A stretch of 44,018 nucleotides of DNA, taken from the sequence record NC_047806.1, one strand, 5' to 3'. Below the pieces are notes generated by a model that saw nothing but the letters and a program-made list of their open reading frames with translations, was not told the origin of the DNA and did no database searches. Every line of letters begins with the position of its first letter. The first letter of the stretch is position 1. This document shows positions 22,321 to 42,671 of this stretch, in pieces. Position numbers and translations under genes: made by a program. The stretch is from Escherichia phage vB_EcoP_B.

Positions 22321-22847
22321 GAGTGAACGGAGCGCAAGCGGAGTGAGGAGCAGTGAGTGAAGCGTAGCGAAACGAACAGATAGCCCACACCCTCATGCCC
22401 TGTCAAACGCTCAGGAATGGCCCTAAAACGGCCTGTGTAAGCCCTAAGCGGTTGCACTAAGGCAATCACCTTGTCCAATACTAAGGCGCGCCCTAGCGCT
22501 TCCTAGGTGTTCTCCTTGTGCAGCCACTAAGAGCAGACCTCGGCAAGCTCTAGGCCACCCGTCGAGCTTCCTGCGGCAGCAGGTTGAAGACGGACCAGCC
22601 CAGCCCAATTCCCAAGCCAACCGCAGCGCGGCCCCATATGGGGGAAATCCGGCGAGGGCGAGGGCGAGAGAGCTGACACACGCCTATATCAAAATTTTGA
22701 CTTTGGTTACTTTGTGACCACCTTTGGTCTGCCCTTTTGGTTACACTAAGATTATTCCTGCTAAGTACAGGTACACCAGCAGTGGGCCATAGATACATGC
22801 TGTGCATAAGAGGGCTAACAGTAGGTCTTTCATGTTACCTCATTTGA

Positions 22848-23003
22848 TTACACTAAGTCGAATCCATTGGGTTGCTTCAGGTAAGCCTGTACAGTTCCAC
22901 CAAGAACCTTCTGGCTAGCCAGTGCAGACTCTTCAGTGTCATGTATCTTCCTGAGTACCTTACGTTTGAATGGGCCGACTCCATAAGTATGAATCCAAAT
23001 CAT
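22848..23003 (-). CDS. small ORF (51 aa) downstream of tailspike; tentative
   Basis: ATG 23001-23003 with strong SD AAAGGAGG; stop lies in a TTACACTAAG repeat. Confidence 0.3.
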   Translation of the reverse strand: MIWIHTYGVGPFKRKVLRKIHDTEESALASQKVLGGTVQAYLKQPNGFDLV

Positions 23004-23196
23004 CAAACCTCCTTTGGGTTGCACTAAGGGCCAACCTAAGCCAGCCCTTGTGCAGACTAAGTGTTACTGCTTCGCAGACGATGCAGAGGCCTTACTCAAT
23101 ACTCTACGTTGAACATCCTTGGCAATGGCATATGCCTGCTTAGGGTCACGTCCTGATTGAATAAGCTCTTCTGTGTTCTGGAGTACAGCAGCTTGC

Positions 23197-25632
23197 TTAA
23201 CTGGTTTTATTAGTGGCATACATCTCCTCTAACTTGTCTAAACGATAACGAGTATAAGCAGCCTCCAAGATTAAGATTTCACTATATCTAACACCAAACT
23301 GACCTTCTTCGAAGGAGACAATGCCGAAGTCGATTGCATCTAACCCTTCGGATGCAAAAGCAGCTACAATGTCTTGTGCCAATACACCAAAGTGAGTGTG
23401 ATGCACACCACTAGACATCTCTCCAATCAACTTGTACTGCTTGAAGGCAACCTTGCCCCATGCCTTTAGTACACCCTCATCAATACCTTGTGATCCATAC
23501 TTATGAGTGGCATCAGACGTAATAATAGGGTCACTTGTAAGATGGATAGTAGTGAATCTATTACGAGGGCCGCCAGCAGGATACACGTTATCATTGTATG
23601 GCATGATAGCCCCGCTTTGGAACAAGTGCTCATTGGCATTATATACTGCGCGTCTAGAAGTACTAGAACCTGCTCCATGTAAGGTAATTTGCGCACCGGT
23701 ATCTGCTGCTGTACCCTCTCCACCAGAGATGATGACACGTTGGGCAGTTGGGTTATCCGTTGGTATAGTCTTACCAATGAACCCATATTCACCTTCCATC
23801 AGCATCTCTGAGCGAATATTAGCACTTGTACTTGCCTTCAGGGTAAGGTGTTCGACAGTCATATCTGCGGCAACTACCTCTCCTGATAAGTGAAGTGGAG
23901 CAGGAATAGTACGAATACCATCAGTACCCATGAAGGTAGGTATAGCCTGACCCGGAGTTGCACCATATGTAAACTTACGAGATACACGATTGTCATTTGC
24001 AATCTGCATCTTATAGCAGTATATATCAGTGGGGTGTCCATGACCTTTAAATGGGTCTTTATCTTTGTTGTCACCATAAGTCATTGGGTTGAAATGGTTT
24101 TCTCCACCAAAGATATAGTAAATGTAGCTGTCTTTAACTACTACCGAACCTACACCTACACTAGAGTTCACAATGTCACCCTGATAGATTTGGTCTGTGA
24201 TGTTAACCCATTCAATGTCATCTGCATTCCACTTGTTTACATTCAATCGTGCATAGAAGGTACGAGGATAAGATGCCTTGTAACGATCATCGGGTGCACC
24301 TGCTTCCCATTCATTTTCTGCACGTTCTGAACCAAACATAATAAGGTCATCTCCTACTTTAGCAAAAGGTAAGGTAGTATGATGAACATTATGTGGAAAT
24401 CTTAGTGACTCCCAAGTTTGACCTATATCTCTACTACGATGCAGAGAGCTTCCTAGTCGATCGCCACGAGTACCACGAGTGATAAGGTACAATACACCGT
24501 CATAGTACTTGATGCATGGCTCTGCCGCATCTGGTTCATACTCAGATGGTATCTGACGACGAACATAATTAGATGGGCTATTGAAAGCATCAGGGAAGTA
24601 GAAAAGCCCAACTTCTCGTGGAGCTACATCACCTTGATGATAGCCCATAACAAAGCCATTGTTATCAATAGTAGCAAAGCTATGCACCTCTGTGACACGA
24701 GTGATTAGACCAAGATCTGTCTTACGCCAAGGAGATTTATGGAAAGAAGTACCCATGTGCCAACTCTTTCCAGCGTTATTCAAATCTGAAGTCTGCTGGT
24801 TAGGTGTAAGAACCGTGAAGTTGTCCTTATCTATTACTGTTGCAACCTTCATATCACCAGATACACCTGTTACCGCAGAGTTAGAGAAGTTAACAAAATC
24901 ACCAACGAAGAGTCCGTGATCAGGTACATGGATTGTTGCATATCTCTGATTTGCAGCCTTAGTGATACCACCAGTAAGATGCAGACTACGAGACATAGGG
25001 CGATCCCACAATGCACAATTGGTTAGTGCGTTCTTGGCTAAAGTACGTGTTTCAATCATGGCAAACAGACGGTTGCGACATACACCCATACTCATACAAT
25101 GATAGTTCACTGTAGGGTAATCTGGATGCAGATCAGTTAACCACTCTGGAGTAGACCATGTTTGACCATCGTCACCAGACTTAACCCATGATACATGCAG
25201 ACGACTAACACCATGACGGTCGCTACCCATGTAAGGTGCATATATCACGTTCTCATATACAAACGCTTTGTCTTGAGGCCAAGCATTGTAATAAGGGTTA
25301 TCCGTGATTTTATAGAGTTCACCATTGATAAAACCTTTACTCACATAGTAAAGAGGTTGACCTGCTAAACGTTCCCATACGAAGCGGGTGTTATAGAATC
25401 GCTCCATATCAGGTAAAGATGATACTTTGTAAGTAGCACCAGCACCGTCAATTCTCTTACCTGAAGCCATCGCTGCATTTACTGCATCTTGGTCGTTTGT
25501 CTTACCATCACCTTTGGCTCCAAAATCTTTAAGCGATACAACCTCGGTGAGCTTGTCATCCAAGTTACGCCAGATTGCACCTGCTATTTTACTCTTGAAT
25601 TTAACTAATGAAGAACCTAGTCTTTGAATCAT
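23197..25632 (-). CDS. tailspike with endosialidase (endo-N-acetylneuraminidase) catalytic domain, 811 aa
   Basis: ORF track; two sialidase Asp-boxes SGDDGQTW and SRDIGQTW; C-terminal chaperone-like segment; AAAGGAGG SD; last structural gene before genome end as in K1E/K1-5-type phages (from memory). Confidence 0.8.
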   Translation of the reverse strand: MIQRLGSSLVKFKSKIAGAIWRNLDDKLTEVVSLKDFGAKGDGKTNDQDAVNAAMASGKRIDGAGATYKVSSLPDMERFYNTRFVWERLAGQPLYYVSKGFINGELYKITDNPYYNAWPQDKAFVYENVIYAPYMGSDRHGVSRLHVSWVKSGDDGQTWSTPEWLTDLHPDYPTVNYHCMSMGVCRNRLFAMIETRTLAKNALTNCALWDRPMSRSLHLTGGITKAANQRYATIHVPDHGLFVGDFVNFSNSAVTGVSGDMKVATVIDKDNFTVLTPNQQTSDLNNAGKSWHMGTSFHKSPWRKTDLGLITRVTEVHSFATIDNNGFVMGYHQGDVAPREVGLFYFPDAFNSPSNYVRRQIPSEYEPDAAEPCIKYYDGVLYLITRGTRGDRLGSSLHRSRDIGQTWESLRFPHNVHHTTLPFAKVGDDLIMFGSERAENEWEAGAPDDRYKASYPRTFYARLNVNKWNADDIEWVNITDQIYQGDIVNSSVGVGSVVVKDSYIYYIFGGENHFNPMTYGDNKDKDPFKGHGHPTDIYCYKMQIANDNRVSRKFTYGATPGQAIPTFMGTDGIRTIPAPLHLSGEVVAADMTVEHLTLKASTSANIRSEMLMEGEYGFIGKTIPTDNPTAQRVIISGGEGTAADTGAQITLHGAGSSTSRRAVYNANEHLFQSGAIMPYNDNVYPAGGPRNRFTTIHLTSDPIITSDATHKYGSQGIDEGVLKAWGKVAFKQYKLIGEMSSGVHHTHFGVLAQDIVAAFASEGLDAIDFGIVSFEEGQFGVRYSEILILEAAYTRYRLDKLEEMYATNKTS

Positions 25633-25699
25633 GTAACCTCCTTTTCTGAAAGGCTACCATCATGATAACCTTTAAGAAAAGTTGCGCGAAAAGCAGTGC

Positions 25700-26035
25700 T
25701 TACGCACTGACAATGTGTTTACCTAGAATGTAAACATCTACATCTATGTCTATTTCAACTTGTGCTGTATGGAATACATGTACTTCTAATCTAGTATCTG
25801 ACACTTTAGTAATCCAAGCTGTACAAAGTGTAGGTGTACTTAATGATACAAGTGATGCCCACGAAGAATCTAAATCTCCTGTTGCAGGTACTTCTATCTC
25901 AATTTTAGTATCTTCACTTGGAACTACACCTTCAAATGTAACACGCCTTTTAGATAGTAAATTATCCAATAATGTAGCTAGTACAGTATCTCTATGTAGT
26001 AAGCCAGTTGTCTTGGGTTTAGTTAACTTAGCCAT
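25700..26035 (-). CDS. short ORF upstream of tailspike (111 aa); possible remnant or adaptor of a second tail protein
   Basis: ORF track 25700..26095 trimmed to ATG 26033-26035 with AGGAG SD; phage promoter 26117-26137 directly upstream. Confidence 0.5.
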   Translation of the reverse strand: MAKLTKPKTTGLLHRDTVLATLLDNLLSKRRVTFEGVVPSEDTKIEIEVPATGDLDSSWASLVSLSTPTLCTAWITKVSDTRLEVHVFHTAQVEIDIDVDVYILGKHIVSA

Positions 26036-26116
26036 ATACTCTCCTATTACTTCCCAACCCTCCCTATGAAGATTGGCTAGTAATAGGCCGCTCAAAAGAA
26101 CGGCACTATCTTATCT

Positions 26117-26137
26117 CTTCTATAGTGTCCAGTAAAT
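26117..26137 (-). promoter_or_regulatory. phage RNAP promoter (upstream of tailspike operon)
   Basis: ATTTACTGGACACTATAGAAG. Confidence 0.7.
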
Positions 26138-26166
26138 CGTAAGACACTGATACATAAAACTATGTA

Positions 26167-26364
26167 TTAATTATACCCGCGTTCTAGCGAGAGAATGTAC
26201 ATACCTAATTTTGTAGCGTCAGGCTTACTGAAGCAGACTTTATCGTCCACCTCGTAGACTGCCGTAAGCGTCGGCTTCAGAGGCTTCACCTTTGGATTCT
26301 CTGGTAACGCCGTCTGACACCCTGAAGTGATCAGCGAACCAATCAGCAGGATTGTCGCTAGCAT
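26167..26364 (-). CDS. outer-membrane lipoprotein, o-spanin (Rz1-like), 65 aa
   Basis: ORF track 26167..26427 trimmed to ATG 26362-26364 with GTGAGG SD; signal peptide plus lipobox LITSGC, Pro-rich mature part. Confidence 0.55.
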   Translation of the reverse strand: MLATILLIGSLITSGCQTALPENPKVKPLKPTLTAVYEVDDKVCFSKPDATKLGMYILSLERGYN

Positions 26365-26711
26365 GATTCGCCTCACTTTGTGCCTCCTTCTCTTCCTTCT
26401 TCTTCTTAGCGGCAAGCAGCAGGCCAATAAGACCTGCTACCACCTCTAGCACCTTATTCACAGGTGATTACTTGGCATACCACGTCAGTGACGGAACCTT
26501 CAGTACCTTCACCTAGGTCTACGCCAAGACCTACAGAAACAAGAGCAATCACCAGTGCAACCAGTGCACCTACCACTTTCTTAGACTTAAACAGCTTTTT
26601 CATTACATCTCCCTTTCCATTGAGCTAATAAGTCCGAGTAGTTCTTCCAGTCATCATAGTTGCCACCCTCGGCAGCTTGAGCAACCATGCGCTCGCACCA
26701 TTCAATACATC

Positions 26712-27056
26712 TTACCATCGTGCACATCCCTCTCTTACATCAATGTGGGTGAAATTAGGATAAGACCCAATGCCATATTTATTGGGGTAGCGTGCTGTTA
26801 GATAGGACCATACACGGTAAGGTGTAATACCTTGTACCTTAATGTCAGCAGCCTTACCAGTAAGATGCATGGAGTTCTTAGCACCTCCCACATTAGCATT
26901 GTGCTTAGCACAGCGGTGTCCAGAAGTAATAACTACAGGAGCACCAAAGTGCTCACGTACATCTGTGACTACCTGTAGTAACTCAGCATCTACTGTGGAT
27001 GTACCGCACCCACAACGGCAAGCGAACTCACGGCGCTTGAAGTGTTTGTTAAGCAT
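26712..27056 (-). CDS. endolysin, peptidase M15-type (115 aa)
   Basis: ORF track 26712..27125 trimmed to ATG 27054-27056 with GAGG SD; zinc-peptidase signature SMHLTGKAADI (SxHxxGxAxD) and downstream FTHID. Confidence 0.7.
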   Translation of the reverse strand: MLNKHFKRREFACRCGCGTSTVDAELLQVVTDVREHFGAPVVITSGHRCAKHNANVGGAKNSMHLTGKAADIKVQGITPYRVWSYLTARYPNKYGIGSYPNFTHIDVREGCARW

Positions 27057-27076
27057 TATTGACCTCGTCTTTACAA

Positions 27077-27364
27077 TTAAGCCGCAGGTGTTACAGGGTC
27101 CGACTCCATAGTAGTTGCATCCCACTTGTCGGTGGGTTCACTCCCACGTGCAATAGCGATGTACAAGGATTGGTCTGTTTTCTCTACAGCAACCATGGCA
27201 CCTTTCTGTTTACCAGAGAGGTGTTTAATGTTGATAGGATGATCTTTCTTCTTAAGGTCTGCTTCAGCAACAATAGGCAAAGGGATTGCCGTTGCAGTGG
27301 TTTGTACAGTTTTTACTCGAAAAGCCTGACCAGTAACAGTACCTGCGGTTCCATATTTAGACAT
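27077..27364 (-). CDS. small protein, paralog B (95 aa)
   Basis: ORF track; strong SD AAGAGGAG; shares SGKQKGAMV...IAIA...TPA with neighbour. Confidence 0.5.
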   Translation of the reverse strand: MSKYGTAGTVTGQAFRVKTVQTTATAIPLPIVAEADLKKKDHPINIKHLSGKQKGAMVAVEKTDQSLYIAIARGSEPTDKWDATTMESDPVTPAA

Positions 27365-27376
27365 GTAACTCTCCTC

Positions 27377-27655
27377 TTAAGCTGGGGTAATAGTAGTGAC
27401 CGCTTTATTAGCTGTCAACCAATTGGAATCTTCTTTGCCATCAACTGCGATAGCAATAACCAGGTTATCATGTGTATCAAGACACACCATGGCCCCTTTC
27501 TGCTTACCTGATTTGGTGGCATCATTAATAACATCACCTTTCTTCTCAACAGTGTCCTCGTAAACTACAGGAAGCATCAGGGCTTCACTAACAGGTTGTA
27601 TCTGCTTACGAGCAGACTTACCTGTAAGGGGTTGTGTACTATAACTATTAGACAT
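27377..27655 (-). CDS. small protein, paralog A (about 92 aa)
   Basis: ORF track 27377..27715 trimmed to ATG 27653-27655 with AGGAGAG SD. Confidence 0.5.
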   Translation of the reverse strand: MSNSYSTQPLTGKSARKQIQPVSEALMLPVVYEDTVEKKGDVINDATKSGKQKGAMVCLDTHDNLVIAIAVDGKEDSNWLTANKAVTTITPA

Positions 27656-27788
27656 TCTCTCTCCTATTATGTAAGTATAGTAAGGAAGTAAGGAATAGGG
27701 TGTACAGGAGTACACCCATACTAAGGAATACCTATATAACCTAGGTTAACCTATATTATCCTTGTTATTCTCTTATTATCTGGGCCTT

Positions 27789-27810
27789 CCTTCTATAGTG
27801 TCCGGTAATT
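27789..27810 (-). promoter_or_regulatory. phage RNAP promoter (overlaps terminase stop)
   Basis: AATTACCGGACACTATAGAAGG. Confidence 0.65.
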
Positions 27811-29707
27811 AATAAGTCCTTGAAATCCTTGCAGAAAGTGTATTTCTGCTTGCCGATTTACTCCTGTAATTCTGACCGTATACTCTTTGCTGCATAGCCA
27901 CGGAAGTGTTGGTTACTCTTCGCTCAGTGCCATAATCTCCATAGAGCATTGCCCTACGGAGGTGAGGTGTGTTCATAGCATGGATGTAATCGCGCATCTC
28001 CTGCGCTCTGAGGCGATTAATCCGTGTAACCTCGTCATAGTCTATCTGAGAAGTTAATTGCCGTATAGCGCCATACAGAGCGTCTAAGCGGTCATCGTGT
28101 CGTAGGCTGTTCTTCTCAATCGTGATGTTCGACATTTGATTGAAAAGGCTGTATGACATGCGTAGTTCAAGCGGATAGTGCTGTACCGACTCAAAATCAG
28201 ACTTGACCATCTCTGCGTTGAAGATGAGCCTGTGGGCCGCCATTAGTGGCTCTAGTGTTTCAATGATACGCAACTCTTTCTGTCCGGTGGCGTAATCTTC
28301 CTCCAGAGTCACAGGCCACTCTCGTTCAAAGTATGGCTTTATAACGGCCTCAAACGCGCCATGACCAAAGTTCTTTTCAATGAATACCTCTTTAACACCT
28401 GCCTGCTTTGCGGCCTGCACAATGCGATTCAGGGACGATTCGCGGTATCCTCCCGGAACACCAAAGCACTGATACACATAAATGAATGTGCCGTGCAGGA
28501 AGACGATAGACACACCCGTTTCATCCCCGTTCTTACCGCCACCTGCGGGGTCAATATACATAATCTTTCGGGTAACAGCACCCCACTCATAAGGTCGGGC
28601 CACAGGGCGATACATAAAGTCTGTAGGCTTATTGCCATACTTCGGTGCATCGCCAATGATGTTAATAGAGTCGTTGCTCCATGTAGGCATCACAGGGACT
28701 TCCTCTGTACCGAATGAAGTGAAGATGAGGTTGTTCAGGCGTAGTGGATAGCGGTCAGCATCCATCATGCGAGTGTTAAGCATAAACTGAAGCTGGAACT
28801 TAGCCGCACCCTGCGAGATTTCCTTCTCGATCAGCACATCATCATCATACATTTCAGGTGCACAAGGTGCACCACTATTGCCATCCAAGCCATACCCTGA
28901 GCGAAGTGCTGGGTTGTCCTTCATATCCTGCACAATCATAGGTGCAAGGAAGTCACCATAGCATTGCTCCTGCTCCACTGAGGGATAACGTGCAGTCCAG
29001 ATACGAACAGAGTAACCACGAGCAGGTAGGTTATTGTAGATAGAGTTTACGTTCTGAGGAGTACCAAGGTAGATAATATCACCAAACTGGTTAATAGATT
29101 CAAACTCCTTGGTCAGTTCCTCAAGCAAGGCACGTCCTGCCGCTGTACGAGCATTCTGCATTGACTCAACGTCATCTGCTAGGATGATATCTGCACGCGC
29201 ACCCTGCATACCTGCTTCGATTGAGTAACAAGACACAGAAGGCGACTTGTCACTGCCACGTAGGGTGTAATGAATCTCAAATGCCTTAACTGAGGCACGG
29301 TCCCCTGCGTAGATGTCCGGTAGCATAAACTCAAGAAAGTCTAGGCCACGGAAGATTTTAACTACCCAACCTGCGATTTCCTCTGCTCGCTTGGCGTTTT
29401 GGGATACTACCATGATACGCTTATGGGGTTCATGGATGATACGGAAAACAGTATAGATTGCTGATAGTGTAGTTTTAGCGATACCACGGGGCGCTTCGAT
29501 GAGGCGATATTTATGTCCATAGAATAGAAACTTTAAAATATCGGCCTGCATACGAATCAGATGAGGGTTGCCTGCAATCAAGTTATGGATAACTGTATCT
29601 GCAAAGAGAAGCAAACCTTCCGCCGTATACTGAAAAGTCTGCTGTAACTCCTGTAGCATCTCCCATCTGGCAAGAGCCTCCGCTTGTGATTCTCTTGCCT
29701 TAGCCAT
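27809..29707 (-). CDS. terminase large subunit (gp19-like), about 632 aa
   Basis: ORF track 27809..29710 (TTG) trimmed to ATG with CTAAGGAGG SD; Walker A-like PRGIAKTT; size and position. Confidence 0.8.
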   Translation of the reverse strand: MAKARESQAEALARWEMLQELQQTFQYTAEGLLLFADTVIHNLIAGNPHLIRMQADILKFLFYGHKYRLIEAPRGIAKTTLSAIYTVFRIIHEPHKRIMVVSQNAKRAEEIAGWVVKIFRGLDFLEFMLPDIYAGDRASVKAFEIHYTLRGSDKSPSVSCYSIEAGMQGARADIILADDVESMQNARTAAGRALLEELTKEFESINQFGDIIYLGTPQNVNSIYNNLPARGYSVRIWTARYPSVEQEQCYGDFLAPMIVQDMKDNPALRSGYGLDGNSGAPCAPEMYDDDVLIEKEISQGAAKFQLQFMLNTRMMDADRYPLRLNNLIFTSFGTEEVPVMPTWSNDSINIIGDAPKYGNKPTDFMYRPVARPYEWGAVTRKIMYIDPAGGGKNGDETGVSIVFLHGTFIYVYQCFGVPGGYRESSLNRIVQAAKQAGVKEVFIEKNFGHGAFEAVIKPYFEREWPVTLEEDYATGQKELRIIETLEPLMAAHRLIFNAEMVKSDFESVQHYPLELRMSYSLFNQMSNITIEKNSLRHDDRLDALYGAIRQLTSQIDYDEVTRINRLRAQEMRDYIHAMNTPHLRRAMLYGDYGTERRVTNTSVAMQQRVYGQNYRSKSASRNTLSARISRTY

Positions 29708-30006
29708 CAATCCTCCTTAGTGAATTGGATGATCTTGCCACTTGATGCCTCTCGGATAGCCTTGAGGCGCTTAGATAGCTTGGACTCCTCCTGCTGTGCA
29801 GCGGGTGTAGCGGTAATACCATTATCAAGAACCCACTTACACATAGCTCCAATGTCTTTACCAGAGACTAAATGCAGTGCTGCATCTGGGTCTTCTTCTA
29901 TAGTGTCCAGTATTGCCTGTGCTTTCTTATTAAAGATTTTGGTAATAGCACCATGTAGAATGCCAACCTCGTCTTCCGTAGCTGCATGTTTATTGTGTAC
30001 GCTCAT
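29707..30006 (-). CDS. terminase small subunit (gp18-like), about 99 aa
   Basis: ORF track 29707..30051 trimmed to ATG 30004-30006 with GGAGGAGG SD; position between holin and large terminase. Confidence 0.55.
   Translation of the reverse strand: MSVHNKHAATEDEVGILHGAITKIFNKKAQAILDTIEEDPDAALHLVSGKDIGAMCKWVLDNGITATPAAQQEESKLSKRLKAIREASSGKIIQFTKED
29895..29915 (-). promoter_or_regulatory. phage RNAP promoter-like sequence inside small terminase gene
   Basis: CAATACTGGACACTATAGAAG (5' end diverged). Confidence 0.45.
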
Positions 30007-30184
30007 GGCTCCTCCTCCATAGTTTAATCTTGGTATAAAACCAGTCTCCAATTTGCAACACGGTATAAATGAATGTTGCTATTAACACCCAATTATCCCA
30101 ACTGATACCGAGGAAGTACCCACCTGATACTAATGCAGGTGGCGCCAGCTTCACACCACTATCTACCAGTTCGGAGTTAATCAT
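29990..30184 (-). CDS. holin (T7 gp17.5-like class II), 64 aa
   Basis: ORF track; strong SD AAGGAGGTG; hydrophobic core IATFIYTVLQIG parallels T7 holin ...AIAYTVVQIG... (from memory). Confidence 0.6.
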   Translation of the reverse strand: MINSELVDSGVKLAPPALVSGGYFLGISWDNWVLIATFIYTVLQIGDWFYTKIKLWRRSHERTQ

Positions 30185-30193
30185 TGCACCTCC

Positions 30194-31156
30194 TTACACT
30201 AGTTGTAACTTCATACTTACGACACACTCAGGCAATGGCTCACTGAAAGTGATAGTAGAGCCTACGATTTCATAAGTATTATTAGGTTGATACAGTCCAT
30301 CCAAATATACATCAAGACGTTGGAAAGCCGTTACAATGTCGATAGATTGTGTACCTTCACTCACTGCTTGTGTAAAGAGGATAGTATCCGCACTTGTAGG
30401 TGGGGTTAAGCGACTACCGATAAGCACATAAACTTCATCTCCAGCCTGTAATGGCTCGGACAGGGTTATAACATCATACCCCACTGATACTGCACCTGCT
30501 AGCTCATGCTGGAATACACCGTTTATAAACACCATAGCATCATCAAATGAGTAAGGTGGTCGAATGATTTGCTCTCCACCGGAGGCGACCATATACCAAG
30601 GAATAGTGCGATGAGATACACCAGACACCATTCCTCTCTTAATACCAGCAATCTCTATATCTTGTGCAGAGTTCCAATCAGTATGCTTCTTGTCGATAGC
30701 ATCTAGCTGTGATTTATTTACTGCATCTTTTGGATTCTCACCATCAGCTAGGTCAGTAATCTTATTGCCGCCCCAGCTTACATTCTGCTTAATGAAGTAC
30801 CCTTCTGGATAAAACCCATCAAGTAACTCCTGTGTAATCTCCAGTATATGAATGAAAGAACCATTTAAAGACTTCATATCCAAGGTAACACCACGGTCAA
30901 ACTCAGCGTATGGATATTCTTTTTGTACTTCCCTTCGAATACGGAACTTCAAACCTGCAACGGGTGCTACATCAAAAGTGATTTGATGCGTACCAGTTAA
31001 TTGCCAGCCAGATGTAATCTCAATCCAAGTGTTACCTTGAAGAGATTCCACTATCACATCTGAGGCACGAAGATAGCCTTTATCCCTGCCAGCAAAGCTA
31101 AAGGGATAGGTTACTTGCGTACCGTTGGCTATATGTTCTGTGAAAGTATAACTCAT
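30194..31156 (-). CDS. tail-fibre-like adaptor protein, about 320 aa
   Basis: ORF track 30194..31159 (TTG) trimmed to ATG with GGAGGA SD; N-terminus resembles tail-attachment domain of T7 gp17; no receptor-binding-sized C-terminus. Confidence 0.6.
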   Translation of the reverse strand: MSYTFTEHIANGTQVTYPFSFAGRDKGYLRASDVIVESLQGNTWIEITSGWQLTGTHQITFDVAPVAGLKFRIRREVQKEYPYAEFDRGVTLDMKSLNGSFIHILEITQELLDGFYPEGYFIKQNVSWGGNKITDLADGENPKDAVNKSQLDAIDKKHTDWNSAQDIEIAGIKRGMVSGVSHRTIPWYMVASGGEQIIRPPYSFDDAMVFINGVFQHELAGAVSVGYDVITLSEPLQAGDEVYVLIGSRLTPPTSADTILFTQAVSEGTQSIDIVTAFQRLDVYLDGLYQPNNTYEIVGSTITFSEPLPECVVSMKLQLV

Positions 31157-34100
31157 CAATCCTCCAGTTCATCTAAGCCATAACGCAATGCGTTCTGGAT
31201 TCCTATTACATTAGTTAGAGGCACTAAGCGTAAAGCCCTACGTGCCACATCTACACCTTCTGTATCACCCTCTGCATATTTAGTTATAGAATCTGCTAAA
31301 CGATATGCATCTTGACCAACACCTACTAGTGGTATTTGGTCTATCAAACCCTTAGTCTGAAAGCCAGCCTCATAACGGGATTGTACTAACTCAGAAGGTA
31401 GAACACCTAGGCCACCCAAGAAATCTCCACCTAGACTAAATACAGCAGTTGTACTCATCATACCCATTGCACCAAAGGCCAACCCTTTAGGCGATAACTT
31501 CTCTTCCAAATATTCATCTTGGTCTTCTCGCCCAATAGAGTTCACATAGGCTTTTGCCGCATACACTATTGAACCCAAAGCAAACCCGTAAGCTGTCTTC
31601 TTAGCAAGACCAATTTTATCGTGGCGAATCCCTCGACCAAATTGCTTCTCACCAGATACAAGAGAGAATGACTTAAGCTGTGCAAATGTCTTACCTAGTG
31701 CTTTGTTCATCCAGATACCTTCATCACCAATGAAGTTACGTTGGATAATTAGACCTGACTTACGACGAATAGCATTAGCTAAAGTTTCACCCATGGCATA
31801 AGGCATTGTATCAAAGCCAAGCAAGCCAGAACCTTTAGAGTTAGCATCATAGTGCTTCTGTAGGTTAGTCATGAACTCCTGAGTAAGACCAAGTTCCTCC
31901 AGTTTCTTCTGAGGAATAATCTTCTTGCCTTCAAGGTGGTCAATGAAAGACAAAGCTATTTGCCTATTGGTCATTCGCTCCAGAGAACCCTGTGCCATGC
32001 GGAAGAGTGATAGGTTGGTTTGAGCACGACGTATTGAGTTCATGGATTGGTCAAAGTGAGCCATCATCCCTCTTACTGTGGTTACATCACCAAACTCATC
32101 TGGACGTGCACCCTTGGTTGTTAGCCAGTTATCCTCACCAATGTAACCTACCATCCTCTCTACTTCTGCCAAGTTCTTATCTCGGAAGAAGCCATCACCG
32201 CTCCGCAAAGCCTTAGATGTAAAGCGGAATTGCTTACCTAAAGCTATAGTGGTTGCAGCAATACCAAACTCACCCATGAAGTTAGCAAGTTCACCTAGCT
32301 GTGCGAAGCCCATCTGACCTAAGCGAAGTACACCTGTAATGTCACGACCACGACGCAGCATTTTAGTAGATAAAGCCTGTGGGTCTGCATCGATAGATTT
32401 ACCCATAATTAAGCGAAGCCCTTCTCGCATCTGACGGATTTCTTCATCAATAGCCAGACCCGCTGCTTCATCTTTCTCTTTCAATTTAAGTCGCTTCTTT
32501 AACTCTTCAATCTTCTCTTGTGCCTTCTTGTAATCAGGCTCTGATTGACGAATCTTAGCAGACTCCGCTTCAAATTGTGCGTGTGCTTTTGTATCTTTAG
32601 CTGCATTTCGTGCATTTCGCTCTACAAGGTCAATTGCATTAAGTGCAGCCTGATAGGTAGAGAAACCTTGACGAGCCAAGGCAGCACCACCTGCCGCTTC
32701 CTTCATGTAGTTATCTGTTAACTCTTCCACGTTAGTATTCATAAAGTCACGCATACGAATGCCATTGTACTCTTGAGTAACATCTAAGCCTAAACTCATC
32801 TTAGCTCGGTTAGAGATATTATCTCTGGTTTCTTTATTATCAAGAGCTTCTACCATCTTTTCAATTTCTTCATCACTGAAGCCTGCCTTGCGCATTATTG
32901 CTTCATACTCTGCTTTAGTCTGACCAGACATAGCCTTTTCGAAACTCATACGTCCTGTCAGAGTGGCATCCACAACACGGTTTACTTGTGCACGTGCAAT
33001 CTCATCAGCCACTTCCTTTGGAACCTTACGAGAACCATTCTGGTATGCACGAGAGAATAGCTCAATGATGTCCTCCTTATCGTGCATACTAAATTGACGA
33101 CGAGCCTTCATACTGTCAAAAATATCAGGCATGTACTTATCATCTGCTTTAACCTTTTCAAACCCAGCTTCACCAGAGCGCTTCCGTAAAGCTAAGGCTT
33201 CTCGATACATAGCTTGCTGCCCCCCTGCTGCCATACGGATAGACTTAGGCGTAGACTCATCCATACCGATGCGTACAGCTTCCCATACCTTCTCATTATA
33301 TTGCTGCACATAGTGAGAGTTAGTATGACCTGCAACCGGATTGATATTATTCTCTTTGAGCCATAAATCGAACCCATCATTGAAACGGTTCATATCAGCA
33401 GATTTCAGACGATTCAAGTTAGTATTCTGCATGAGACTAGCCGATGCCTTCTGTGCACCTAAGCCTTGCGGGGACTCAAACAGGCGAGCACCAAGACCAC
33501 GTACACTTGCATCCTGAGAGGAGTGCACGACAGTACCAAGGGCAGACATAGTTCCGGCCCAGCGGCGAGGTGTCATATCAATTGCATTACCTTCCCGCTG
33601 TAGGGTTTTCAGCAAATCTTCACCTTTGCTAGAGATATCGAATGCACCCTCAGTGAGTACCTCTTCACCCTTAACACGCATCGCACCGATACTGTCATCA
33701 GCAACAGCACGCACATAGCGGTCCCCTGCGTCTGCACTGCGCACAATGCTTGCCGCTCTGTCATCCCCTTGCTCACTGAGCTTAGTGGCCCTACCACGCG
33801 CTACAGCGCCGATAACGCCACCCATCGCCATGCCCGAGCCTAGTGCCACCATAATGTCATCTAAATCACGAGTCATGTCACCTTGGACCAATACGGACTC
33901 AATAGCGGCATTACTCACGCCAGCGGCGATAGCACCACGCACAGCACGGCCTACAAGCCCAACTTTAGCTGCACCACCGGTTGGAATAGAGGCAACCCAG
34001 CCAACAGGGTCGAGCACAGCAGCACCAATCGTTGCCACAGAGCCAACCCAGCCAGCCTGCGCAATACGTTTATTACGCTCAAGGTCTTCATCAGCATTCT

Positions 34101-34528: not shown

Positions 34529-37477
34529 CTACAATTTAACTTTACCTACCTTAGAATCTTTAGCTAACTTGGTAGGTGCAGCATCATAAACCTGATACCA
34601 ACCATCCGCGCCAATACGTTTATGAGTCCATGCCGAGACAGAACCTGCTGGCATAGGGCCACCAAATCTAACCCACATGGAGCCATCTTCACGAGTCTCC
34701 ACTTCGGTAATCTTAGGCACACCACCAGCAGATGCCATATTGTAAGCCTCAGCACGTCGCTTCAGTAAGCCAGAAACACGTTTACCTTCACTAGATGCAG
34801 TACCCAGCATTTCGATAAAGCCTTCCGTAAGTTTACCAGCTTTGAATGCAGCAAGAGCACGCGGTGAGTTCTGGATTCCACCTTTACCTAAATTGTAGGT
34901 TAAATCCATCAAGCCACGTTGCTGTGCAGGATGCATCTGGTCAAACGGAATCTTCCAGTCACGAGTAGGAGGCACATGCTTCTTAGCATCTTGCTCCATA
35001 AGAGCGCGAGCCTTACTCTCTGTAAGCTGAGACATAGACCCTCGATAGGGAACTAGTTCATCGCCAATCTTAATATACCCGTTTCGCTTCTCTTCTTCCG
35101 TTAAGAAATGACCGTAACCGATAGACTCACCGTGAGCGTCTTTATATGGAGTAAAGGTTCCAGTTGCCTTATTAAAGCCAACTTTATCTTTATTCTCATC
35201 CATAGCTAGCTTGTCATAGAATTGTTGCATATTACCTCGATAGTTAATCTCGAAGTTAGAAGGCAGATTCTCACCAGAAGCAAAAGCAGAAGACATGAGG
35301 AAGTTAGCTAGTCCAAATTTACCAATATCTTTGGCAGTTGGCTTAGCTGGCATTGGTTCTTGTGCACCGATACCTGTACGATAGGGATGAACATACTCGC
35401 CTTTGTCTCGTTCTTCTACTTTCTTCTGATAGGCAGAATCCAGTAGTGAAGTGGTATCCAAAGAAGTTACAGGGATTACTCCAGAAAGAGGGCGACCTGC
35501 TGCACCAGCACGAATCACAAAAGTTCCTTTCTGTTCATTGTAATCAATGTACACATCATCCTTAGTTTCCCACTCTTGAAGCTCCTTCTTCAATTCTGGC
35601 ATCTGTGTTTCTACATACCTACCAAGCGCCAGAGGGACATCGGTAGGGTTTACACCTTTCCCAACTGACATAAGCATATCAGATGCAGAAGTGTAATCAC
35701 CTTTAATGAAATAGCCACCTGAAGTCTTTGCATCCTCTGATTGAGTGTAGCGTTTATTGCCCCAAGTAATTAAAGCCTTCTTGATAGAATCCATGTTACG
35801 CATACCGCTAGACCACAGCATATTGGCCTTAGCTCGTAACTCTTCTTCCGCAATAGCTTTACCTAAGTCTGACACTTCGGTTTTACCATCAAACCAGCCA
35901 GCACCAGATACCTCATCCAGTGCATCTCCAATAGCTGAGTTGAACTTCTTGTTTTCCTTCTCAGTACGAGAGAATTTATGCTGTGCTTCACGCGCAAACC
36001 TTGCAGCCTGCAAAGGTGTCTCTCCCATTTGTAGTGCAGTATTGTAGTTATCCATGTAGCCATTCACCGTGTCACCAAAGACACCTCGGCTCTCTTCTGG
36101 CAACTGTTCCCACAACTGACGAATAGTCATCAACTCCTGTGGTTCGCCCTTGGCAAAGTGCTCAGGAGATAGCATAGATTCCATGGCTTTGATACGAGAC
36201 TCAAAGGTATCATCCACTAAGCCTTTGGAGTTCATGAATTGCAGGCGCTGCACTTCCACTGCACCACGAATAGCTTCAGCCTCTTGACTGTAAGGGTCCA
36301 AGCCACGTTGTTTGATTTGCTGGTCTGCATAAAGTTGGCTATCCTGTTTGATAACATCAATGTAAGCCTTCTTCTCTTTATCAGTCTTACCTTGGAAGCC
36401 AGTCAGGCGGTCGGAGTAAAGCTCACGTCGCATATCCTGCATTGCACCTAGCTCTGCATTCTGCTTAGCCCGTTGGCGCATCAGTGCCTCTAGCTCTGGA
36501 TTAGAGAAGACAGAGTTACCTGTCAGATTATTAATGTGCTGTGCTCGTTCCAATAATTCTTTATCAGTTAAATCGCCTGCAAGGTATGATTCTTTAACTT
36601 CGAAAGACATACGAGTTACATCAGCTACATTATTCCTAGCCCAAACTGCATTACCACTAGTGATGGCTGTGATAAGCTGTGGATTCTTAGCATAAACAGA
36701 AACGCCCTTATCGTCCTTCACATACTTCAGGGCTTCAGCCATGCTAACATCCCCACCTTGTGCAAGTGAAATTGCCCGCTGGACTAACTTCTTGTACATC
36801 TGTTCAGGTAGTAATCCTTGAGTCAGACCTTCGCGGATTCGTTCCTGTAAAGCATAGCCAGAGGCCTCAGGGTCAATATTAGAATCCCAAGTAGAAGCCA
36901 CTCGCCCGTCAAAGGTATCCTCACGGTCTGCTTGTTCACGGTCAAGTTTATGCTTGGTTCGTGTAGCCCAAATCTGAGGCTGCTGTTCTTGGAAGACATT
37001 AGTGACCATACGCATAGTATCTTTGTCACCTTGCAACTCAGGGTATTGCTGGAACAGCTTATTCTGCATCTCATTACGAGAGTCAACCATAAGTTGTGTC
37101 CACTCGTCATCCGTCCCTTGGAAACGAGTAGCCATGTTTTTCATTCGTGCTGCTTCATCATTAGCTAGCAGTTGAGCTTTGACAAGCATGTTAGCACGAG
37201 CGCCACCACGAGTTGCATCCTCAGAAGGCATTAATCCGTTATATGCCCGTTCCATTTGAACAACCTTATCTTCCTCAATCTTCTGATTAAGGATACCAGT
37301 GGTAACATCAGCCACGCTGCTTGCTGCACGAATAAGGTCTTCGATAAACCCACTACCGGAGGTAGAAGCCACGCCAGCCTCCACACCTCCCACTTGTTGA
37401 GGTGCAAAGGTCATGACATTAGGAGAAGTGGCCTGCACTTGTGGCAGACCTTGTACTGCTTGTCGCTCAATTGCCAT
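34529..37477 (-). CDS. internal virion protein with C-terminal lysozyme-like domain (982 aa)
   Basis: ORF track; ATG overlaps upstream stop (TAATG); residues around YKDAHGESIGYGH...DLTYNLG resemble T4-lysozyme-type fold. Confidence 0.7.
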   Translation of the reverse strand: MAIERQAVQGLPQVQATSPNVMTFAPQQVGGVEAGVASTSGSGFIEDLIRAASSVADVTTGILNQKIEEDKVVQMERAYNGLMPSEDATRGGARANMLVKAQLLANDEAARMKNMATRFQGTDDEWTQLMVDSRNEMQNKLFQQYPELQGDKDTMRMVTNVFQEQQPQIWATRTKHKLDREQADREDTFDGRVASTWDSNIDPEASGYALQERIREGLTQGLLPEQMYKKLVQRAISLAQGGDVSMAEALKYVKDDKGVSVYAKNPQLITAITSGNAVWARNNVADVTRMSFEVKESYLAGDLTDKELLERAQHINNLTGNSVFSNPELEALMRQRAKQNAELGAMQDMRRELYSDRLTGFQGKTDKEKKAYIDVIKQDSQLYADQQIKQRGLDPYSQEAEAIRGAVEVQRLQFMNSKGLVDDTFESRIKAMESMLSPEHFAKGEPQELMTIRQLWEQLPEESRGVFGDTVNGYMDNYNTALQMGETPLQAARFAREAQHKFSRTEKENKKFNSAIGDALDEVSGAGWFDGKTEVSDLGKAIAEEELRAKANMLWSSGMRNMDSIKKALITWGNKRYTQSEDAKTSGGYFIKGDYTSASDMLMSVGKGVNPTDVPLALGRYVETQMPELKKELQEWETKDDVYIDYNEQKGTFVIRAGAAGRPLSGVIPVTSLDTTSLLDSAYQKKVEERDKGEYVHPYRTGIGAQEPMPAKPTAKDIGKFGLANFLMSSAFASGENLPSNFEINYRGNMQQFYDKLAMDENKDKVGFNKATGTFTPYKDAHGESIGYGHFLTEEEKRNGYIKIGDELVPYRGSMSQLTESKARALMEQDAKKHVPPTRDWKIPFDQMHPAQQRGLMDLTYNLGKGGIQNSPRALAAFKAGKLTEGFIEMLGTASSEGKRVSGLLKRRAEAYNMASAGGVPKITEVETREDGSMWVRFGGPMPAGSVSAWTHKRIGADGWYQVYDAAPTKLAKDSKVGKVKL

Positions 37478-42650: not shown

Positions 42651-42671
42651 CTTCTATAGTGTCCAGTAAAT
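42651..42671 (-). promoter_or_regulatory. phage RNAP promoter (capsid promoter)
   Basis: ATTTACTGGACACTATAGAAG between scaffold and capsid genes. Confidence 0.75.

Follow-up and report, generated by a model that had tools for sequence, protein, structure and literature searches.

The closest described relatives of the enzyme considered here are the endolysins of the SP6-like phages K1E (gp43, named 'endolysin' in RefSeq), SP6 (gp46) and K1-5, which share with it their length, a position after the large terminase gene (TerL) and two paralogous genes, and a downstream neighborhood of gp44 and spanin genes. In PMC4837284, which credits Oliveira 2013, the three proteins are assigned to the peptidase_M15_3 family, an assignment that this 2016 paper describes as made 'without biochemical evidence', and PMC4411677 ties SP6 gp46 to 1LBU-like proteins. 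The 'separated position' and 'conserved position' of the holin, endolysin, Rz and Rz1 genes in SP6-like phages have been noted as well (PMC4640515). The literature thus already covers both the assignment to M15 and the separate gene locations, which are standard for the SP6-like group. Biochemical data come from LysPM1 of Proteus phage Homer (116 aa, Peptidase_M15_3; reported in 2026), which lyses permeabilized cells, is inactivated by EDTA and regains activity with Zn2+, has a Zn triad of H63/D70/H104 with 1LBU as the best structural match, and was lytic for none of the tested species other than Proteus (PMC13461873). The structure 1LBU itself is the Zn D-Ala-D-Ala carboxypeptidase of Streptomyces albus G, the type enzyme of MEROPS subfamily M15A, a secreted bacterial protein of 213 aa with an extra N-terminal domain. 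Phages of Gram-negative bacteria also have small Zn peptidase endolysins with a single domain in EndoT5 of phage T5 and the other M15C L-alanyl-D-glutamate peptidases (PMC13461873), but these members of the M15 family fall into another, VanY-like subfamily, M15C, and EndoT5 is activated by Ca.

Beyond the SP6-like phages, the lysis genes of T7 lie at three places, with gene 3.5 in the class II region, gene 17.5 before the small terminase gene (terS) and genes 18.5/18.7 between terS and TerL. The T7 endolysin, gp3.5, is a cytoplasmic, holin-dependent Amidase_2 protein that also serves as a regulator of RNA polymerase. The SP6-like layout has the holin gene between the adaptor gene and terS and an endolysin-spanin cassette between TerL and the tailspike gene, so that, compared with T7, it actually brings the endolysin and the spanins together.

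The window analyzed here is the complete genome of Escherichia phage vB_EcoP_B (NC_047806.1; 44,018 nt), presented circularly permuted and as the reverse complement, with the cut falling in the head-tail adaptor gene and every gene carried on the minus strand. Judging by nucleotide identity, the phage is a K1E-like Vectrevirus (Autographiviridae, Molineuxvirinae, SP6-like). In megablast searches with the endolysin region and the first 25 kb of the genome as queries, positions 25600–30300 were 99.4% identical to vB_EcoP_K, 98.6% to vB_EcoP_C, D and R and 97.8% to K1E, while the rest of the genome was 96–98% identical to published relatives. The gene at 26712–27056 is very probably the canonical, holin-dependent endolysin of this K1E-like Vectrevirus, a single-domain M15A zinc metallopeptidase of the Peptidase_M15_3 family (Table 1).

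Table 1. Features of the vB_EcoP_B genome discussed in the text, from high to low coordinates.
Feature	Coordinates	Strand	Product length (aa)	Family matches and remarks
Internal virion protein (orthologue of K1E gp35)	34529–37477	-	982	Phage_lysozyme (PF00959)
Adaptor	30194–31159	-		Phage_T7_tail N-terminal domain
Predicted holin, T7 gp17.5 family (orthologue of K1E gp38)	29990–30184	-	64	PF10746; PHROG 920
Small terminase, terS	29707–30006	-	99	DNA_Packaging_2, E=3e-16
Large terminase, TerL	27809–29710	-	633	Terminase-T7_RNaseH-like, E=5.5e-35
Promoter-like site (phage RNA polymerase)	27793–27807	-		TACCGGACACTATAG; directly 3' of TerL, 5' of gp41
gp41 homologue	27377–27655	-	92 (from ATG 27655)	Paralogue of gp42
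gp42 homologue	27077–27364	-	95	Paralogue of gp41
Endolysin (orthologue of K1E gp43, SP6 gp46)	26712–27056	-	114	PF08291; PHROG 894
gp43.5, soluble 43-aa ORF	26587–26718	-	43	PHROG 1312 (unknown function), E=1.8e-18; C-x-x-W-C motif
gp44, membrane protein	26454–26603	-	49	PHROG 4712 'holin', E=3.2e-27
73-aa ORF (homologue of SP6 gp48)	26240–26461	-	73	PHROG 9219 (unknown function), E=1.8e-35; GTG start
o-spanin (orthologue of K1E gp45)	26167–26376	-	69 (from GTG)	PHROG 8971 'Rz-like spanin', E=1.9e-39
Promoter-like site	26120–26134	-		TACTGGACACTATAG; 3' of the o-spanin gene, 5' of gp46 and tailspike; distal limit of the cassette

The endolysin gene starts with an ATG at 27056, has GAGGT six bases 5' of it and ends with a stop codon at 26712–26714, giving a product one residue shorter than the 115 aa of the initial annotation. 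The amino acid sequence is the same as that of K1E gp43, the start codon being ATG here and GTG in K1E, and is 75% identical to SP6 gp46. The product matches PHROG 894 'endolysin' (E=3e-45), and a profile search places it in a peptidoglycan peptidase family, Pfam Peptidase_M15_3 (PF08291), across the whole profile (1–108/108) with an E-value of 5.5e-33 and a score of 113.8 bits, far above the family cut-off of 23.2 bits. Two related families were matched below their cut-offs, Pfam Peptidase_M15_4 (E=0.046) and, distantly and far below the cut-off, the NCBIfam model of the L,D-endopeptidase MepK (E=2.3e-8). The initial annotation had proposed an M15 peptidase on the strength of an SxHxxGxAxD signature, and both the signature (S62-M-H64-L-T-G67-K-A69-A-D71) and the family are borne out, with the M15A residues aligning to those of 1LBU. 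Recent horizontal import of the gene was considered and rejected, the GC content being an unremarkable 0.461 compared to 0.450 for the genome.

Based on the alignment to 1LBU, residues R138, H154, D161 and H197 of the Streptomyces enzyme correspond to R48, H64, D71 and H104 of the endolysin, of which the last three are predicted to be Zn ligands and R48 the residue facing the substrate carboxylate. The single endolysin sequence matched 1LBU with an E-value of 2.3e-4, and a profile built from nine homologues did so with an E-value of 3.3e-9, in an alignment that covers the Arg, the H-x6-D and the final His. These four residues and D106 are invariant among the nine homologues, which range down to 35% identity. 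The two enzymes differ at the general base, with H195 of 1LBU replaced by F102 in the phage endolysin, and in a cluster of co-varying cysteines (C13/C15/C17/C49; CxCxC...C), which is missing from the aligned, cysteine-free part of 1LBU. To judge by their sequence pattern, the four cysteines could form a second, structural Zn site, a proposal without mention in PMC13461873, a paper on such enzymes. An AlphaFold2 model computed from the single sequence was poor, with a mean pLDDT of 67.8 and values <50 in the N-terminal Cys region, and a Foldseek search of the PDB with this model returned no match at E≤0.001. M15A members include D,D-carboxypeptidases such as D-Ala-D-Ala carboxypeptidase, and the sequence of the endolysin leaves room for more than one bond specificity.

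Homologues of the endolysin are present in 724 phage records, and those listed are mostly annotated as endolysin or peptidase M15. The protein of Proteus phage PM116 is 77% identical to the vB_EcoP_B endolysin and provides the connection to LysPM1. R47, H63, D70, Y98, F102, H104 and D106 of LysPM1 correspond in seven out of seven cases to the PM116 positions minus one and, because this numbering and the length agree, we infer that LysPM1 is an orthologue of the PM116-type endolysin and that it is about 77% identical to the vB_EcoP_B protein. The two enzymes, from phages of different host genera, both consist of a single domain, are about 115 aa long and share the SxHxxGxAxD signature, the Zn triad, the Arg, a Tyr, a Phe-x-His and an Asp. 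By analogy with LysPM1, the vB_EcoP_B endolysin would be expected to possess muralytic activity.

The N-terminus of the endolysin (MLNKHFKRRE) is charged, hydropathy peaks at 0.85 over 19 residues, and no signal peptide, SAR domain or transmembrane segment was found with a 19-residue hydropathy window. As it is without a hydrophobic segment, the enzyme is predicted to be cytoplasmic and dependent on a holin. In the proposed course of lysis, the endolysin would be made late, fold and, having no export signal, build up in the cytoplasm until a holin permeabilizes the inner membrane and lets it reach the murein. The holin would be gp38, possibly together with or replaced by the adjacent 49-aa gp44. 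With Zn bound by H64, D71 and H104 and R48 contacting the substrate carboxylate, the enzyme would use a Zn-activated water to cut a peptide bond of the murein stem or of a cross-link. A spanin system, consisting of the o-spanin with gp44 and/or the product of the 73-aa ORF, would then disrupt the outer membrane.

The predicted holin at 29990–30184 matches Pfam Phage_holin_2_2 (PF10746; E=5.5e-27) and PHROG 920 'holin', agrees with K1E gp38 at 61 of 64 residues and, in a tblastn comparison of the gp38-type holin, is 34% identical to T7 gp17.5 (E=9e-7). It has a single clear hydrophobic segment (residues 32–46), its charged C-terminus reads KIKLWRRSHERTQ, and it is most simply read from its sequence as a holin of the T7 family. 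The gene overlaps terS by 17 nt. The gene order laid out in the initial annotation is upheld throughout: the holin gene lies between the adaptor gene, which has the Phage_T7_tail N-terminal domain, and terS, with its DNA_Packaging_2 domain; the distance to the endolysin gene, estimated there at about 3 kb, measures 2933 nt; and terS, TerL and two paralogous ORFs, the homologues of gp41 and gp42, occupy the interval. The paralogues are 37% identical to each other (BLASTP, E=1e-13). PHROG 2725 aligns with the gp42 homologue over positions 4–100 of 238 only, and profile and PDB sequence searches with this protein returned no Pfam, NCBIfam or PDB match. RefSeq names gp41 and gp42 'acetyl-CoA acetyltransferase', a name that is rejected here because nothing significant was found in Pfam or NCBIfam for either protein or in the PDB for gp42.

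The initial annotation had also described the lysis genes as dispersed, which stands for the remote T7-type holin but overlooks the cassette with gp44 and the o-spanin gene that adjoins the endolysin gene. Because RefSeq and PHROGs label gp44 a 'holin', one candidate for this role may even adjoin the endolysin, about 100–110 nt past its stop codon. Dispersion is, moreover, the norm for the family, since T7 too scatters its lysis genes. T7 and vB_EcoP_B share the holin family and its slot between the tail-fibre/adaptor gene and terS, as well as an endolysin of the cytoplasmic, holin-dependent kind, whereas the endolysin is an amidase of the class II region in T7 and an M15A peptidase of the late region after TerL here, and the spanin genes, located between terS and TerL in T7, adjoin the endolysin gene in vB_EcoP_B. 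Of the lysis genes, only that for the holin is found where T7 has it; a gp3.5 amidase is lacking, and the spanin genes have shifted to a place beside the endolysin. A tblastn search of the whole genome with T7 gp18.5/18.7 yielded noise only, and at the sequence level the vB_EcoP_B spanins are not homologous to those of T7.

The initial annotation had noticed no amidase-like ORF in the replication module, and every search made for one agrees. T7 gp3.5 compared by tblastn against all six frames of the genome gave noise only, the best match being 26 aa long on the non-coding strand (E=0.045). Among 37 early/replication-module ORFs scanned with Pfam, 15 families were matched but not Amidase_2; the endolysin itself has no Amidase_2 match in Pfam, and no amidase is listed in the K1E annotation. 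These results support the view that the M15 peptidase does the work of an endolysin that in T7 falls to the gp3.5 amidase. The finding is thus correct but ordinary, as the enzyme type and the separation of the holin have been published for K1E and SP6-like phages.

Four genes follow 3' of the endolysin gene, in the order gp43.5, gp44, 73-aa ORF and o-spanin, with gp44 and the o-spanin gene located within 550 nt. The ATG of gp43.5 overlaps the endolysin stop codon (ATGGTAA), and each of the 13 genomes compared has a homologue of gp43.5, as does Ralstonia phage Reminis. The membrane protein gp44 has a basic N-terminus, a strong transmembrane segment at residues 10–28 (19-residue hydropathy, 2.76) and an acidic tail of 21 aa with two conserved Cys, and its stop codon overlaps the GTG start of the 73-aa ORF. 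The N-terminal helix of its product is short and hydrophobic, and the protein also carries a cluster of lysines and a charged tail, with 55 hydrophilic residues. The o-spanin gene, with a GTG start preceded by AGGAGG, begins within the 73-aa ORF in the +1 frame and encodes a precursor in which MRRIMLATILLIGSLITSG precedes the lipoprotein cysteine, the lipoprotein signal ending in LITSG directly before that C, with a mature protein of 50 aa that is proline-rich (5 Pro). Searches of Pfam and NCBIfam with gp43.5, gp44, the 73-aa ORF, the o-spanin, gp41 and gp42 found nothing significant.

The small membrane proteins beside the endolysin are inconsistently annotated across sources. RefSeq and PHROGs call gp44 a 'holin', while Kongari 2018, in its supplementary tables, and the record of phage LL11 list it as an i-spanin. 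Those tables also list the o-spanin and give the pair a 'separated' architecture, with a curator note on gp44, 'Too small?', and with its position behind the endolysin as the curators' sole argument for the pairing. The topology predicted for gp44 suits an i-spanin (N-in/C-out), but with only about 21 periplasmic residues. A tblastn search of a phage collection found gp44 and the 73-aa ORF confined to SP6-like phages, a distribution that does not separate a holin from a spanin role. The 73-aa ORF is considered in neither Kongari 2018 nor the LL11 record; it is annotated in SP6 (gp48), PM116 and BigMira, and is missing from the K1E-type RefSeq records, that of K1E included, and from the published spanin census (Kongari 2018).

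The 73-aa ORF is open with a GTG start in all 13 genomes. Outside its overlaps with gp44 and the o-spanin gene, over 87 nt, its frame has a pN/pS of 0.37, compared to 1.18 and 3.11 in the other frames (13 genomes, summed against vB_EcoP_B). Of 29 sites at each codon position, 18, 10 and 25 vary, and no other frame is free of stops throughout the 13 genomes. The pN/pS values, the codon-position pattern and the sole stop-free frame mark the ORF as a genuine gene evolving under purifying selection, and it lies in the position of a classical overlapped Rz/Rz1 pair.

These properties bear on a different reading of the locus, in which the lysis genes are functionally not dispersed at all: gp44 would be the holin, a co-holin or an antiholin, the 73-aa gene and the o-spanin gene would encode an Rz/Rz1-type pair and gp38 would be auxiliary or redundant. 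The 73-aa gene is under purifying selection, the o-spanin gene begins inside it in the +1 frame as in classical overlapped Rz/Rz1 pairs, and the N-terminus of its product, with a 19-residue hydropathy of 1.46, is no less hydrophobic than that of the T7 i-spanin gp18.5 (1.35). The name given to gp44 in RefSeq and PHROG 4712, its very strong single transmembrane segment close behind the endolysin stop and a periplasmic portion of only about 20 residues, to which the curators' size query refers, are consistent with a holin-like role, and the block from gp43.5 to the o-spanin gene stays intact even where the type of endolysin has been swapped, as in Reminis. Against this, the lysine cluster right after the helix of the 73-aa protein favors an N-out/C-in topology, the wrong orientation for an i-spanin, and the hydrophobic stretch is just 12–15 residues long with a D or R inside it in the Proteus phages. 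The two conserved Cys in the periplasmic tail of gp44 resemble those of disulfide-linked spanins, spanin specialists list gp44 as an i-spanin (Kongari 2018 and LL11), and conservation of the T7-type holin in its separate slot is strict. A functionally compact set of lysis genes is, on balance, possible but doubtful, and it is likewise rather unlikely that the SP6-like cassette has been mis-annotated, with the 73-aa gene as the i-spanin and gp44 as a second holin or antiholin. If true, SP6-like phages would carry a full, adjacent holin-endolysin-spanin cassette in addition to an inherited T7-type holin.

The placement of the M15A endolysin as a holin-dependent lysis enzyme is consistent with how its gene is embedded and conserved. 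A pattern search with TAGGNNACACTATAG, allowing up to two mismatches, gave 13 promoter-like matches compared to 1.6 expected by chance, and the consecutive sites at 27807–27793 and 26134–26120 place gp41, gp42, the endolysin gene and the four cassette genes between them. Conservation of the five cassette proteins extends over 13 genomes, from Vectrevirus, Zindervirus (SP6 and BP12B), Klebsiella phages and Proteus Acadevirus. Reminis keeps the block of 43-aa ORF, gp44, 73-aa ORF and o-spanin gene with a transglycosylase in the endolysin slot that has a signal-like N-terminus, and KBNP1315 has a SAR endolysin there (PMC4640515). Both cases suggest that the endolysin is an exchangeable module within a conserved cassette, and the occupation of the slot by unrelated muralytic enzymes suggests that selection there is for any cell-wall hydrolase.

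A Phage_lysozyme domain is found at the C-terminus of the internal virion protein (residues 776–910; E=3.1e-10); it represents the other muralytic activity encoded in the genome and presumably acts at entry. That this domain serves both entry and lysis, with the M15 peptidase not being the lysis enzyme, would fit the statement, made by Heineman et al. 2009 with reference to the 2004 genome papers (PMC2680503), that SP6 has one muralytic gene for two functions, but is very improbable given that the endolysin gene heads a cassette holding spanin genes, that its slot is filled by unrelated muralytic enzymes in relatives, that the homologue LysPM1 lyses permeabilized cells (PMC13461873), that its many homologues carry mostly endolysin or peptidase M15 annotations and that the one-gene view is older than the identification of the M15 domain, for which PMC4837284 credits Oliveira 2013.

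As the protein is already in RefSeq, its family and gene positions are in the literature and a probable orthologue has been characterized biochemically, the practical value of the locus lies in confirming that vB_EcoP_B, a K1-specific phage, has a compact M15A endolysin without export signal, a type of enzyme of some enzybiotic interest. Annotation practice differs between genomes at the overlapping pair, with the o-spanin gene annotated in some and the SP6 gp48-type ORF in others. The terminase genes upstream differ from those of K1E in one respect: in K1E, TerL is split as 40A, 40.5 and 40B, of which 40.5 is a homing endonuclease, whereas TerL of vB_EcoP_B is uninterrupted.

The cassette of Ralstonia phage Reminis retains the layout found in the window, including a shared block of the 43-aa ORF, gp44 (named after its K1E homologue), the 73-aa ORF and the o-spanin gene, but differs in endolysin type, with the endolysin slot holding a 184-aa transglycosylase that has a signal peptide-like N-terminus. 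Because Reminis keeps this layout with a transglycosylase in the endolysin slot, the comparison shows that the endolysin has been replaced modularly inside an otherwise conserved block. The 43-aa ORF, whose ATG overlaps the stop codon of the endolysin gene in the window (ATGGTAA), is still present in Reminis despite this exchange.

Within the block, the 73-aa ORF is kept in 13/13 SP6-like genomes, and in the part overlapping no other gene it has a pN/pS of 0.37, compared to 1.18 and 3.11 for the two alternative frames, which shows that this part is under purifying selection. The +1 frame within the ORF contains the start of the o-spanin gene, and annotation is split among the genome records, with the 73-aa ORF frame called in some and the o-spanin frame in others; the RefSeq annotations of K1E and vB_EcoP_K lack the 73-aa ORF. 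Public labels also conflict for gp44, which is a 'holin' according to RefSeq and PHROG 4712 and an i-spanin according to Kongari 2018 and the phage LL11 record, though the curators of the former study regarded it as apparently too small. Two cysteines in its short C-terminal tail are common to E. coli, Proteus and Ralstonia phages.

Coordinates of the features in the window and in Reminis (L022)
Feature	Position	Strand	Details
73-aa ORF, SP6 gp48 homologue	26240-26461	-	GTG start
gp44	26454-26603	-	49 aa
43-aa ORF	26587-26718	-	soluble, conserved, C-x-x-W-C motif
Endolysin Cys cluster (C13, C15, C17, C49; also H47, H52)	26712-27056 (endolysin)	-	F-A-C-R-C-G-C-G ... H-R-C-x-x-H
gp42 and gp41, paralogous ORFs	27077-27364 and 27377-27655	-	92-95 aa
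Large terminase gene	27809-29710	-	intact, 633 aa
Promoter-like sites (12 on minus strand)	e.g., 27793-27807, 26120-26134, 29898-29912, 42654-42668	-
Reminis cassette	L022 1108-2213		layout as in window

The M15_3 endolysin of the window carries a Cys cluster that is common to most of nine aligned M15_3 endolysins, with C13 invariant, while a Faecalibacterium phage homologue lacks C15, C49 and H52. The cluster suggests a second, structural metal site; it is not mentioned in the description of LysPM1, the M15_3 endolysin of Proteus phage Homer (PMC13461873).

RefSeq names both gp41 and gp42 'acetyl-CoA acetyltransferase' via PHROG 2725, a profile of 238 positions of which they match only the first ~100, and neither has a match in Pfam, NCBIfam or PDB. 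This name is apparently an annotation error that has been propagated. The large terminase gene of the window is uninterrupted, whereas in K1E, as in several close relatives, the homing-endonuclease gene 40.5 divides it into 40A and 40B.

Allowing ≤2 mismatches, the phage promoter pattern TAGGNNACACTATAG has 13 matches in the window (1.6 expected by chance), most with the core TAC(C/T)GGACACTATAG, and these sites are predicted to mark phage-RNA-polymerase promoters. One site lies within terS and another immediately 3' of TerL. With both ends (positions 1 and 44018) inside the head-tail adaptor gene, the window represents the complete genome in circularly permuted form. Internally, at a junction near 22670-23200, the early region adjoins what is the tailspike end on the K1E map.
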